From UHGV virus genome UHGV-0213571: 39,653 bases of DNA. One strand, given 5' to 3'. Source of the DNA: a virus. The notes beneath the pieces were generated by a model. The model was not told the origin of the DNA. It did no database searches and saw only the letters and a list, made by a program, of their open reading frames with translations. Position 1 is the first letter of the stretch. Each line of letters opens with the position of its first letter. Shown here in pieces: positions 26,368 to 29,763 of the stretch. The position numbers and the translations under genes were made by a program.

Positions 26368-27528
26368 TCAGTACACCTCTTTCCACGAATGCTGGAATAT
26401 TGTCTCGTATGGATAGAATAAATCAGGGTGATTATTAAATCCATATATCAGTCTTGAAATTAAATACAAAACAATAACGCTGTAAATTATAAATATTCCA
26501 GCATTCTTCCTAAACCTATAAAGAACAGATGAAACAAGAAATATCTCTGATGCAGAGTAATACATTGCTAATCTGCTAAAAACAGGATGAACAGAATCAA
26601 GCAACATAAACATTATTGAACTAAACGCAAACAGATTAAACATACCTCTTATGGTACGACCTTCATCATCGTTACGCATTCCATAAGTCGCCCATGCAAA
26701 AACAACAACGAATAATATTCTCTTAGCGTATCCTATTGCTCTTCTTACCTCGCTAGGAATCTCACTAAATGCGTTTAAATCTTGAAGAGCTAGATATCTA
26801 GTTATTTTCATGCTAATAAAAGACGGAAGATAACTTGTCATCAAGCCAAGTATATTGGCAGCGCCAAAAAGCATTGATATTATAGCGGCAATGCAAGTTA
26901 TTAATATTATCCTACTAATACTTGATTTCATTTTGAAAATCAAGTAAGCAGGGATAAACACTAACGCTGTTATATGAAAACCGGATGCAACAATAACGCA
27001 AAAGATAAACTTTGCTTTTGATTGTTCATTTTGTGTTATATATCTAAGTGAAAATATCGTTATCGCTATAGCTATTCCTTGCCTGACTGTAAACATATCC
27101 ATTGAATAAAAGGCCATTGATGCCAATATACATATAAGAGGATACCTTGAAATTTTAAAAAATGTTGAATACTTTAACACAACAACTATTGTTGCTATTA
27201 TAAATAGATAAATTGTGTAAGAGTCATATATATATTTTGATATGAAATTAACAAGAAGAAATAATGTCTCATATCCTTGAGACATGAAAATTTCAAAATT
27301 ATCACTATATGAGAATATATTAAGGTATGGCTCCCAGTCAGTACCTGTTCTCCATCTTATTCCGGCAAATATTATTGTTAATATTCCTATAAATGTAGCG
27401 ATTATTTTTTTATACACAATAGGAGTTTTTAATAAATCGCATGTTGCAACAAAAGAAGCAAATAAGAAGAATAAATAGTATATCATATTTATCACGGTTG
27501 TTATTAAGTTGGGTCCGGATTGTACCAC
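26368..27528 (-). CDS. Polytopic membrane protein, putative O-antigen polymerase (Wzy/EpsG family) — candidate serotype-conversion gene
   Basis: 386 aa, about 10 hydrophobic segments, AT-rich; N-terminal R-x-x-TGTDW-x-x-Y motif (IRWRTGTDWEPYLNIF) resembles EpsG/Wzy signature; sits in the tailspike-int conversion slot; alternative start at 27486. Confidence 0.55.
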   Translation of the reverse strand: MVQSGPNLITTVINMIYYLFFLFASFVATCDLLKTPIVYKKIIATFIGILTIIFAGIRWRTGTDWEPYLNIFSYSDNFEIFMSQGYETLFLLVNFISKYIYDSYTIYLFIIATIVVVLKYSTFFKISRYPLICILASMAFYSMDMFTVRQGIAIAITIFSLRYITQNEQSKAKFIFCVIVASGFHITALVFIPAYLIFKMKSSISRIILITCIAAIISMLFGAANILGLMTSYLPSFISMKITRYLALQDLNAFSEIPSEVRRAIGYAKRILFVVVFAWATYGMRNDDEGRTIRGMFNLFAFSSIMFMLLDSVHPVFSRLAMYYSASEIFLVSSVLYRFRKNAGIFIIYSVIVLYLISRLIYGFNNHPDLFYPYETIFQHSWKEVY

Positions 27529-27658
27529 TATGGCTACTCACGATCGATATCTATAGCATTGAATGCGATAAAAATTCTACATGATGCCAATTATATGCAT
27601 AAAATTTTTAATTGTACCTTTTGTTACTATTCGCAACAAAAGTATTATTGTGTGTTAT

Positions 27659-28819
27659 TTATTCTTCGCGTTTTTCATCAAGCCAGTCCGCCCACCACTG
27701 CATCATTTCTCTGCGCTTATCTAGATACTGAGCATGGTTGTAAATTCCACGCACAGATCCGCCGTTGGCATGTGCCAGTTGCACTTCAATAGCGTCAGCA
27801 GGCCATTCGTGCTCGTTCATAATCGTGCTGAATTCATGCCTGAATCCGTGACCGCTTTCCAGACCTTCATAGCCGATTTGTTTGATCACAAGTAGCACCG
27901 CGTTCTCGCAGATTGGCTTCTTCTTATCGTTGCGCCCGGCAAAAACAAACTCTGATACTGGTTTAGTGATGGAGCTTAGCGTAGTGAGAAGTTCAACCAC
28001 CTGGTCCGACATCGGAACCACATGAATCTTGCGTCCCTTCATCACACTGGCGTCGATGGTGATAATCCTGTTTTCAAAATCGACGTTCTTCCATAGCATG
28101 GAACGAAGCTCTTTTGTTCTGAGGGCTGTGTAGCGTAAAACTTTGGTCGCAATGAGCGATACGATACTTCCTGAAAATGTTGCCAGTGCTTTGTTGAATG
28201 CCGGGATCTGGTCTGCAGGAAGAAACGGGAAGTTTTTCTTGCGGTATCCCTTCATGGCGTCAGCAAGGTCAGGTGCCGGGTTATATTTAGCCCTACCAGT
28301 GACAATAGCGTAACGGAAAACCTCGCCGCATCTTCTGCGGGCTTTGTTGGCTCGCTCCATTGCCCCGCGATCTTCAAATCTGCGGATTACTTCCAGCAGT
28401 TGCATCGGCTCAATATCTTGAATTTCAATGCCGCCGATGATAGGTAAAATGTCGTCATCAAACATTTTTGCAAGTTCAGTCGCATACCCTACTGACCATA
28501 CTTGCTTCTTGTGCTCGTACCATTCTTTGTAAATCGCAATAAAGGAATTGTTGTTAGACGAAGCCTTTTTCGCCTTTACCGGATCGATGCCAACCGAGAT
28601 GTCTTTCCTCGCAGTCCATGCTTTATCCCTTGCCTCCTGCAAAGTCATAAGCGGATATTTTCCGACAGTCAGGATTTTCTCCTTACCGTCAATCTTGTAG
28701 CGAAGCTGCCATACCTTTTTCCCGGATACAGGGACATAAAGGTACAGGCCATTACCATCGAGAAGGCGGTATGGTTTTTCTTTCGGCTTAGCTGCTTCAA
28801 TCTGCTTAACGGTGAGCAT
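27659..28819 (-). CDS. int: Tyrosine integrase (P4-type, with N-terminal arm-binding domain)
   Basis: N-terminus MLTVKQIEAAKPKEKPYRLLDGNGLYLYV and C-terminal catalytic region (HGFRHEF...GIYNHAQY); ORF track extends to GTG at 28855 but ATG 28819 matches typical N-terminus. Confidence 0.85.
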   Translation of the reverse strand: MLTVKQIEAAKPKEKPYRLLDGNGLYLYVPVSGKKVWQLRYKIDGKEKILTVGKYPLMTLQEARDKAWTARKDISVGIDPVKAKKASSNNNSFIAIYKEWYEHKKQVWSVGYATELAKMFDDDILPIIGGIEIQDIEPMQLLEVIRRFEDRGAMERANKARRRCGEVFRYAIVTGRAKYNPAPDLADAMKGYRKKNFPFLPADQIPAFNKALATFSGSIVSLIATKVLRYTALRTKELRSMLWKNVDFENRIITIDASVMKGRKIHVVPMSDQVVELLTTLSSITKPVSEFVFAGRNDKKKPICENAVLLVIKQIGYEGLESGHGFRHEFSTIMNEHEWPADAIEVQLAHANGGSVRGIYNHAQYLDKRREMMQWWADWLDEKREE

Positions 28820-29074
28820 GGGTAAAAATCCGGTGGGTAAAATTATTTTATCCACTTTTTACCCGTCATGGAGTGCGGCTGTCAACGATCTGACGCGAAC
28901 CATTACGAACTGTGCATCTACAGAAGGCTTGATATTCAGGGGATTTTGCGGACTGGTACGGATGGGAGCGAACTGATAAATGGTGTCCCCTGCAGACATC
29001 TACTTGGCGCGGCAGGGGATTGATTGGAATGATGTTTTTTAGATGTGAAAAATATTTTACCCGCTATTTTACCC
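28820..29074. repeat. Cluster of five 8-mer repeats (GGGTAAAA / TTTTACCC) flanking the candidate att core; candidate Int arm-type binding sites
   Basis: Copies at 28820-28827, 28835-28842 (GGGTAAAA) and 28857-28864, 29055-29062, 29067-29074 (TTTTACCC). Confidence 0.4.
28981..28995 (-). other. Candidate attP core: 15-nt identity to the 3' end of tRNA-Arg(CCU) argW (CTGCAGGGGACACCA incl. CCA) on minus strand
   Basis: Plus-strand TGGTGTCCCCTGCAG is the reverse complement of the remembered argW 3' terminus; located between int and xis with flanking arm-like repeats. Confidence 0.5.
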
Positions 29075-29269
29075 ATTGGCGCGGCTTAAGAGCTTATTTT
29101 TGAATTCACAATGGTCACGATATAACCATCTTGCTCGTCCGTGGATAACTTTGGCTTTTGGCAGGTCGCCGGACTTAATCCGGTCGTAGATGAAGGTTTT
29201 ACCGAAGCCAGTATCGGCCATGATGAATTTCAAATCAACCAGTGAATCAGGCTGTAGTTCGTGTTGCAT
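29069..29269 (-). CDS. xis: Excisionase / AlpA-family DNA-binding protein
   Basis: 66 aa with HTH (MADTGFGKTFIYDRIKSGDLP) resembling AlpA/Xis family; directly upstream of int. Confidence 0.65.
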   Translation of the reverse strand: MQHELQPDSLVDLKFIMADTGFGKTFIYDRIKSGDLPKAKVIHGRARWLYRDHCEFKNKLLSRANG

Positions 29270-29288
29270 GAGTGCTATCTCCGAATAG

Positions 29289-29304
29289 GGAATCGAACCT
29301 GCAA
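29289..29304 (-). other. tRNA T-arm-like fragment (TTGCAGGTTCGATTCC on minus strand) matching tRNA-Arg argW positions about 46-62
   Basis: Contains canonical GGTTCGATTCC T-loop motif; not part of an intact tRNA (no acceptor pairing). Confidence 0.45.
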
Positions 29305-29310
29305 ATCAGG

Positions 29311-29336
29311 CAATAAAAAACCGCATTGATGCGGCG
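29311..29336 (-). terminator. Rho-independent terminator (minus strand) downstream of early-left gene
   Basis: Minus-strand CCGCA-TCAA-TGCGG hairpin followed by TTTTTT. Confidence 0.45.
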
Positions 29337-29391
29337 ATGGTAGGTCTGGATATCTTGATAAATGAAAATGCCTCATCGAGTGTGAGGCGGG

Positions 29392-29763
29392 TTAGTCCTT
29401 GCGTAGCTCGCTGATTCTTCTGTAAGTCTCTGGTGCTTTGTTCCCGTACGTCTTCATTTCAGACTTCAACAGAGCAACGAGTGAATCCCATTCGTTGAGG
29501 ATTCCTTTGAATGCCGGAACGCGCTTTGCAACCTTGTCGAATGAATCTCTGATTTCTGGAATCTGCTCAACAAGTGCAACGCATCGTCGGAAATCTGCTG
29601 CGTCATGTGGAGCGCCGAAGTGATGACCATAGATATTCTTTTTCAGTCCACATGCGATTGAGGCAAGAGTTGCGCTACTGATGCCGACATCGCCAGTCGA
29701 TTGCCATTTCAAAACCTTCATAGCCAAATCTGACATTTCTTGTCTCCAATAAAAAACCGCCAT
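29392..29763 (-). CDS. Hypothetical early protein
   Basis: 123-aa ORF in early-left operon; no recognisable domain; start may be internal (MSDLAM...). Confidence 0.5.
   Translation of the reverse strand: MAVFYWRQEMSDLAMKVLKWQSTGDVGISSATLASIACGLKKNIYGHHFGAPHDAADFRRCVALVEQIPEIRDSFDKVAKRVPAFKGILNEWDSLVALLKSEMKTYGNKAPETYRRISELRKD

Follow-up and report, generated by a model that had tools for sequence, protein, structure and literature searches.

A segment resembling the T-arm of tRNA-Arg in the xis leader of phage modules of the IntS/TorI type that target argW

The virus genome UHGV-0213571 (39,653 nt; this whole stretch is the window of the present analysis, and all positions refer to it) is a mosaic, P22-like (Lederbergvirus) genome, with no more than 46% of its right half covered by the best-covering phage record. 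The minus strand of the window carries a module that consists of an integrase gene (int), a phage attachment site (attP) and xis, the gene for a recombination directionality factor (RDF). Read along this strand, a terminator hairpin is followed by TTGCCTGATTTGC, a 16-mer that resembles the T-arm of a tRNA, the Shine-Dalgarno sequence GGAG, xis, two GGGTAAAA repeats, the attP core, the P' arm, three further GGGTAAAA/TTTTACCC repeats and, finally, int (Table 1). The gene order is int-core-xis, that is, a gene for a TorI-type RDF lies across attP from int. At the DNA level, int is ~97% identical to its counterparts in HK620 and Sf6, the products of which are named 'prointegrase IntS' in RefSeq, and its ATG was placed after the HK620 annotation; the 66-aa product of xis is 98-100% identical to proteins named TorI, and the gene is annotated as torI in E. 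coli genomes. An earlier note on this DNA, which was made from the sequence alone, had given positions for both genes, and these are borne out. No tRNA gene was detected in the window by ARAGORN.

Table 1. Positions of the int-attP-xis module and of the xis leader in the window
Feature	Position	Strand	Basis or remark
int, IntS-type tyrosine integrase	27659..28819	-	Pfam Arm-DNA-bind_3, Phage_int_M, Phage_integrase
Functional attP equivalent (P' arm, core, P arm)	28796..29092	-	KplE1 primer positions
P' arm-type Int repeats GGGTAAAA	28820-28827, 28835-28842 (+); 28857-28864 (-)	+ and -	HK620 attP repeats 1207-1232, 1232-1253
PintS promoter	28856..28885	-	-35 TTGACA 28885-28880, -10 TAAAAA 28861-28856, read from the sequence
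Five phased YRGWYCGY repeats	28885, 28895, 28905, 28948, 28968 (span 28885..28975)	-	Putative TorI/Xis sites
attP core CTGCAGGGGACACCATT	28979..28995	-	Identical to the argW 3' end plus 2 nt (17 bp to attB)
GCAGGGGA	29012..29019	.	Inverted copy of core segment 28986-28993, 8 bp, 18-bp spacer
P arm-type Int repeats GGGTAAAA, two copies	29055-29062, 29067-29074	-	Inside HK620 attP repeat_region 1441-1463
xis, recombination directionality factor	29069..29269	-	(Nearly) identical to TorI / HkaC / Sf6 gp18
Shine-Dalgarno GGAG of xis	29279..29282	-	Kept in 23 leaders, mean majority frequency 0.94
T-arm-like piece TTGCAGGTTCGATTCC	29289..29304	-	argW nt 46-61, 16-nt exact; conserved block GTTCGATTCC at 29289-29298
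TTGC-N5-TTGC	29301..29313	-	HK620 (1689-1701) annotation: cII binding site of the 'pI' promoter
Intrinsic terminator hairpin with T-run	29314..29335 (hairpin 29335-29320)	-	Upstream of the xis leader; mosaic junction

Where does this module integrate? As the reference for argW, we used the annotated, ARAGORN-confirmed tRNA-Arg(CCT) gene that adjoins an IntS-type integrase gene in the record HQ424691 (sequence GTCCTCTTAGTTAAATGGATATAACGAGCCCCTCCTAAGGGCTAATTGCAGGTTCGATTCCTGCAGGGGACACCA). An exhaustive comparison of the window with this gene yields exactly two long exact matches, of 16 nt and 15 nt, beyond which the matches are of 10-11 nt; in 300 Markov-simulated windows, the longest argW match was 9-13 nt, with one of 15 nt and none of 16 nt. 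The two matches, argW 46-61 and argW 61-75, are contiguous in the tRNA and share 1 nt. The 15-nt match covers the last 15 nt of argW (window 28981-28995, minus strand) and is part of the attP core, whereas the 16-nt match is the T-arm-like piece on the other side of xis; the earlier note had claimed both, and its argW sequence agrees with the reference.

The claim that this attP lies between int and xis and is directed at argW likewise stands, and was already known for close relatives. The annotated attP core of HK620 (AF335538, 1368-1383) corresponds to window 28980-28995, and the same core is annotated in the Sf6 record. A search for prophages inserted in argW with this core located both junctions: the identity between attP and attB is exactly CTGCAGGGGACACCA(TT), argW continues without a break into the P' arm at attL, and, in the attR of phiv205-1 and of K-12 KplE1, identity to attP ends after CCAT(T). 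Integration at argW is observed for near-identical modules, and the core-xis-leader stretch is present in 1,407 of the 5,426 complete E. coli genomes. For KplE1, a 16-nt duplicated core, CTGCAGGGGACACCAT, has been described along with arm-type and core-type IntS sites and TorI sites (PMC2951348), and for Kapi1, a 17-bp att has been reported, with deletion of attB abolishing integration at that locus (PMC8787464). Because the attP core is fixed by annotations, junctions, the literature and its occurrence in genomes, the alternative location that the earlier note had allowed for, in the gap 27529-27658 downstream of int, is not needed. Within the core, the sequence suggests an overlap region of 7 bp, TGCAGGG, bounded by the inverted half-sites TGTC/GACA.

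The arms of this attP conform to the same pattern. The 8-mer GGGTAAAA is present in 6 copies in the window, against an expectation of 0.93 and with no more than 4 in any of 100 shuffles, and 5 of the 6 are clustered around the core. These five copies, for which a role as Int arm sites had been proposed in the earlier note, coincide with the HK620 attP repeats and with the KplE1 module (PMC2951348, PMC3509656, PMC8787464), and are kept in relatives with 70-85% Xis identity. The copy at 28857-28864 overlaps the -10 box of PintS, as site P'1 does in the published module (PMC2951348), and the PintS hexamers in the window agree with those given in the same paper. The P' arm additionally contains five phased YRGWYCGY repeats, a motif defined only after the sequence had been inspected; we infer that these are TorI/Xis binding sites, their number being in agreement with the five cooperative TorI sites reported on attL (PMC3509656).

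With an IntS-like integrase, a TorI-type RDF opposite int, an argW core and arm repeats that include the one over the PintS -10 box, the functional attP equivalent of Table 1 is, judging by sequence comparison, the attP of the known IntS/TorI module of the KplE1/HK620/Sf6 type. A 751-bp region of the window is ~97% identical to HK620, Sf6, IME10, HF4s, HK633 and others; KplE1 (CPS-53), HK620, Sf6, CUS-3 and Kapi1 share the int-attP-xis order, the 16-17-bp core, the arm repeats, PintS over P'1 and TorI. This group, at ~97% DNA identity, shares also the xis leader with the T-arm-like piece and the terminator, and nothing substantive differs within the module. Upstream of 29324, the phage in the window has an HK022/HK97-like segment where HK620 and Sf6 have a sequence of their own, and its remaining genome is mosaic in a different way. 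In functional terms, the N-terminal domain of IntS binds the GGGTAAAA arm-type repeats, and IntS exchanges strands inside the 17-bp core that is identical to the 3' end of argW; given this identity, the tRNA is restored upon integration at attL, on the int side, while xis comes to lie at attR. TorI/Xis would bind the phased GTTCG-type repeats on the P' arm and drive excision.

As in lambda, the integrase of this module is hetero-bivalent, with sites of the arm type and of the core type, the RDF acts on phased direct repeats, a TTGC box is present near the start of xis and, according to the literature, the module depends on IHF. Unlike in lambda, attP lies between xis and int, which are separately transcribed, the RDF sites are located on the P' (attL) side, the target is the 3' end of a tRNA gene, and the TTGC box is N5-spaced and polymorphic. 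The argW pseudo-tRNA pawZ, at the KplE1 attR of K-12, is the duplicate of the argW 3' end that is made by integration and is equivalent to window 28981-28995. While pawZ is the copy of the core, the T-arm-like piece found upstream of torI constitutes an argW-like fragment of its own, which bears no annotation in the K-12 record.

Several other features of the core and its target can be mentioned here. The core segment TCCCCTGC (28986-28993) is perfectly inverted in the P arm, 18 bp off, and CCCCTGC at this position is kept in most relatives; the inverted copy could be an extra core-type Int site or part of a hairpin. The sequence CAGGGGATT is present on both arms (28937-28945 and 29013-29021). 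A 46-aa open reading frame (28936-29076, minus strand), homologous to hkaB of HK620 and gene 17 of Sf6 and without a Pfam match, is probably not a real gene; it spans the attP core, so that integration would split it. In the Klebsiella phage Chronis (MN013086, locus 1770-1790), the core is ATGCAGGGGACACTTG, with the tRNA match extending only to ...GACAC, without CCA, such that integration would leave the tRNA gene without an encoded CCA end. In HQ424691 (VT2phi_272, 1320-2534), integrase genes flank argW on both sides, the IntS-type int at its 3' end and a second one beyond its 5' end, where an attL is annotated over the first 25 nt of the tRNA; hence a single small tRNA gene is targeted at two sublocations. 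Finally, in Escherichia sp. E1V33 and several IMG/VR loci, the attR sequences that follow the core differ (CCAGATACCC..., CCATGAACAC..., GGACAATCCTACC...), implying that the module sits in varied downstream contexts or beside other argW elements.

What, then, is the second argW match? It is located ~295 bp from the core, with the entire xis gene in between, and belongs to the xis leader, between the intrinsic terminator and the Shine-Dalgarno sequence. Of the primers used to prepare the KplE1 substrates for recombination in vitro (PMC3509656), attL-SpeI maps to window 28796-28819 and attR-IHF2 to 29073-29092. Excisive recombination in vitro reaches up to ~80%, with an attR substrate of 135 bp (PMC2951348), so that the DNA sufficient for it is equivalent to window 28796-29092. 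The phage end of this substrate is at 29092, so the T-arm-like piece, ~200 bp further, was excluded from it and is dispensable for excision in vitro. Furthermore, the layout of core and arms is retained without the piece in Chronis, Tatumella, Arsenophonus, Cronobacter, Proteus, Rahnella, Mixta and another Klebsiella element. In the relatives, the sequence directly to the left of the core is TTCGATGTnTGCAGGGG, compared to TTCGATTCCTGCAGGGG in argW. The attP core of the relatives thus has a diverged T-loop of its own, presumably the C core-type half-site beside the overlap, which makes the piece beyond xis a second T-arm-like copy rather than a missing half.

Protein-similarity searches of many Enterobacterales genomes and of viral contigs supplied a collection of xis homologs, and conservation was measured on 23 xis leaders, all of them picked up through protein homology. 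A block of the form (TTnCAGG)GTTCGATT(C/T)C is found ~20 nt upstream of the xis ATG in many argW-targeting modules across Enterobacterales, its carriers being Escherichia, Enterobacter, Citrobacter, Pantoea (two species), Edwardsiella, Hafnia, Serratia and Cedecea-type elements, and it also precedes the genes for a second Xis subfamily, with ~35-45% protein identity. Over the 23 leaders, the majority frequency is 0.96 (1.84 bits) in the GTTCGATTCC block and 0.94 in the Shine-Dalgarno sequence, falling to 0.72 in the spacer, 0.64 in the upstream flank and 0.63 in the xis coding start. In most leader types, the match to argW encompasses 14-16 of the 16 positions, and in Serratia and Pantoea, it extends into CCTG. 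When viral contigs were searched for the exact motif followed by a Shine-Dalgarno sequence and ATG, the matches were solely real tRNA genes and sites upstream of xis homologs. The GTTCGATTCC block co-occurs with three P'-arm repeat types and two arm-type repeat types, all with the argW core, and its end coincides precisely with the junction between the attB B half-site and the putative overlap TGCAGGG. By its sequence and distribution, the piece appears either to stem from argW or to mimic it; it is associated with argW-targeting modules and looks selected. No description of a leader motif in IntS/TorI modules was found in the accessible literature, and a text search with the motif and 'integrase' gave nothing relevant.

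The variation among these modules is best seen in a sister family (viral contigs L239-L318, e.g. L259, L267, L305 and L308) that shares the core (TGCAGGGGACaCCA), the layout and often the leader motif, CAGGTTCGATTCC-N6-GGAGAT. Its Xis, which starts with MRELRDDSL..., shows no more than ~35-45% identity, and its repeats are different as well, those of the arm type and those on the P' arm alike. In place of GGGTAAAA, the same positions are occupied by GCGGGCAT, the change expected of sites that co-evolve with the arm-binding domain of the integrase. Across the sublineages, there are at least three types of P'-arm repeats (GTTCG, RTTACC and ACCAGAAC), the core being constant.

The explanation that we consider probable for the locus as a whole combines a known IntS/TorI attP with a T-arm-like piece that lies outside att and is a conserved motif of the xis leader. 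Most likely, this piece is an argW-derived sequence that has been kept as a protein-binding site controlling xis. The motif would descend from a captured piece of argW, namely, the B side of attB, ending at the boundary of the overlap, and this boundary accounts for the apparent contiguity of the two pieces in the tRNA. Ancestral capture of an argW sequence is a plausible origin; the notion that the piece is the other half of a split att is not supported. The motif would persist as a putative DNA site for a protein of the module itself, and a site of this kind is likelier than an RNA element because there is no conserved RNA fold. The predicted IntS/TorI site, GTTCGATTCC, is conserved, identical to the B side of attB and similar to the GTTCG repeats of the P' arm.

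Which protein could bind there? Our first guess is that the core-binding domain of IntS would occupy the motif as a brake on read-through expression of xis; this domain is favored because it must recognize the same sequence in the attB of every module. The persistence of the block despite the change of arm and P' repeats fits a factor that is common to all lineages. The second guess is autoregulation by TorI, given that GTTCG, the core of the P' repeats, is present in the block. Covariation was used to assess an operator specific to Xis, and this candidate was set aside: the P'-arm repeats vary while the leader block persists, an argument that is only mildly adverse, being confounded by mosaic exchange at the ATG. 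In its full form, the proposal would be that GTTCGATTCC is a working operator, a mimic of the attB half-site bound by the core domain of Int or by the RDF, which would throttle xis so that Int is made without Xis as lysogeny is set up; we advance it tentatively, as a possibility.

Several observations weigh against this proposal. About half of the sampled lineages do not have the leader motif, hence it is not essential, and in one lineage (L262), the block is decayed. The leaders are phylogenetically non-independent: a single leader type is combined with both Xis subfamilies, implying recent mosaic exchange at the ATG that inflates the apparent depth of conservation. Finally, all relatives have ...GATGTn in the C half-site of attP, but the leader is always tRNA-like, ...GATTCC, a difference that would be unexpected if Int binding alone were selected.

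The main rival explanation, doubtful in our assessment, is that the piece is a neutral relic, the scar of an old illegitimate event, with no present function. A candidate for such an event is aberrant excision from a tandem or degraded array of argW prophages, yielding tRNA-O-xis-P-O-P'-int on one molecule. The piece lies exactly at the mosaic junction: similarity to HK620 and Sf6 stops at 29324, and window 29301-29447 is 88-94% identical to the xis-upstream region of HK022, HK97, 434, mEp235 and Stx1a phages. There is also TTGC microhomology between the lambdoid TTGC box and the TTGCAGG of argW, and the leader past the piece weakly resembles the remaining tRNA 3' end plus P' (GGAGATAGCACTCAT vs GGGGACACCATTTAT, 10/15 after a 2-nt offset, counted manually); the absence of the motif from about half of the lineages is equally compatible with a relic. 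Aberrant excision of the lambda gal/bio type would account for at least 16 nt of the B side of attB at a TTGC-microhomology junction. Unlike in the gal/bio case, a single aberrant excision would not leave the captured piece separated from the core by xis and the P arm; a second event or a tandem array would be needed. The expected intermediate, an intact tRNA 3' end directly upstream of a Shine-Dalgarno sequence and ATG, was sought in viral contigs, and all 5 matches were genuine phage tRNA genes. A neutral 10-mer should drift like its flanks, yet this one is conserved at the level of the Shine-Dalgarno sequence across ~12 leader types with differing flanks.

A different reading of the same segment, unlikely in our view, is that it contains a lambda-type pI promoter with a cII/C1 site and that the likeness to a tRNA is incidental. 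HK620 is annotated with a promoter at 1664-1702 that includes the cII binding site, Sf6 has an annotated pI as well, and HK022 and HK97 carry the canonical TTGCGTGTAATTGC at the equivalent place. The spacing, however, is N5 in the window compared to N6 in HK022 and HK97, and the first TTGC is replaced by TTAC or TTTC in K-12 and in ~1/4 of 75 sampled loci, which come from a xis-protein scan that yielded only 100%-identical proteins. Other leader types have no second TTGC, and a consensus scan gave no sigma-70-like promoter at the site. A promoter before xis would, furthermore, co-produce Xis with Int, and int has its own mapped promoter, PintS (PMC2951348). A cII box also leaves the conserved GTTCGATTCC unexplained. 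The possibility of a sigma-54 or sigma-70 promoter within the block itself was considered and rejected, with no acceptable hexamers seen by eye and none found by the scan. As for the adjacent sequence, 29301-29447 holds two terminator-like hairpins, and compensatory changes in the stem distinguish the two terminator variants that occur in the population.

Could the element act at the RNA level instead, as a T-arm mimic or a hairpin in the xis 5' untranslated region that sequesters the Shine-Dalgarno sequence and thereby controls translation or mRNA processing? The leaders of Edwardsiella and P. stewartii can form a full hairpin (ACAGGTTCGATTCCCTGT), that of Serratia has CAGG-TTCGATT-CCTG, and UUCC could pair with GGAG. 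Nevertheless, RNAalifold applied to 24 leaders gave -0.21 kcal/mol, with 5 weak pairs and no compensatory change, and the 3' half of the T-stem is not conserved (CCTAT in E. coli, CCAAA in the Citrobacter type). Neither a cloverleaf nor a conserved T-arm stem-loop was found in the leader by ARAGORN and in the 24-leader alignment, and we regard this alternative as decidedly improbable. Two further candidates were considered and discarded, namely, base pairing between GCAGG in the leader and the distant CUGC of the core, on the other side of xis, which at 4-5 bp over 290 nt was judged too weak, and a 16-nt direct repeat shared by the leader and codons 6-10 of xis (81% identity), ~0.6 such pairs being expected here by chance.

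The earlier note had also raised the possibility of a bipartite att, in which the T-arm-like piece and the core would be two functional halves or the piece would be part of the intasome, and indeed the two pieces abut exactly in argW and the T-arm-like one is conserved. We consider this arrangement highly improbable: for excision, it is largely refuted by the efficient recombination of the short attR substrate, and it is further contradicted by the homologous modules that lack the piece, by its distance from the core across the whole of xis, and by the T-loop-like C site that the core of the relatives has directly beside the overlap. Chance likeness to argW, even granting that T-loop motifs are common and that 11-nt argW matches occur elsewhere in the window, is effectively refuted by a 16-nt exact match ~300 bp from an argW-derived core, unparalleled among the simulated windows, and by the recurrence of the motif before xis in many independently sampled argW-targeting modules.

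Apart from the module, the window contains between the tailspike gene and int an AT-rich gene (26368-27528, minus strand) for a 386-aa membrane protein of the EpsG family (Pfam E = 1e-45). In Sf6, the O-antigen acetylase gene oac is found at this position, and for this reason the EpsG-family gene is a candidate O-antigen-modifying gene of lysogenic conversion.

The attachment site itself offers nothing new, given that the module is present in about a quarter of the complete E. coli genomes and has already been dissected biochemically. The leader motif is a useful by-product of its analysis, a tRNA-derived 10-16-mer that is conserved like a ribosome-binding site and is located between a terminator and xis in many argW elements. 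The sister family could serve as a natural series for the study of the co-evolution of Int-arm and RDF specificities. If IntS or TorI binds the motif, this would explain how Xis is kept low during integration despite the separate transcription of int and xis. An operator of this kind would represent the regulatory use of a target-site mimic in the role that is played in lambda by pI/cII and sib and, if true, would provide a clean case of an attB half-site put to new use as an operator.

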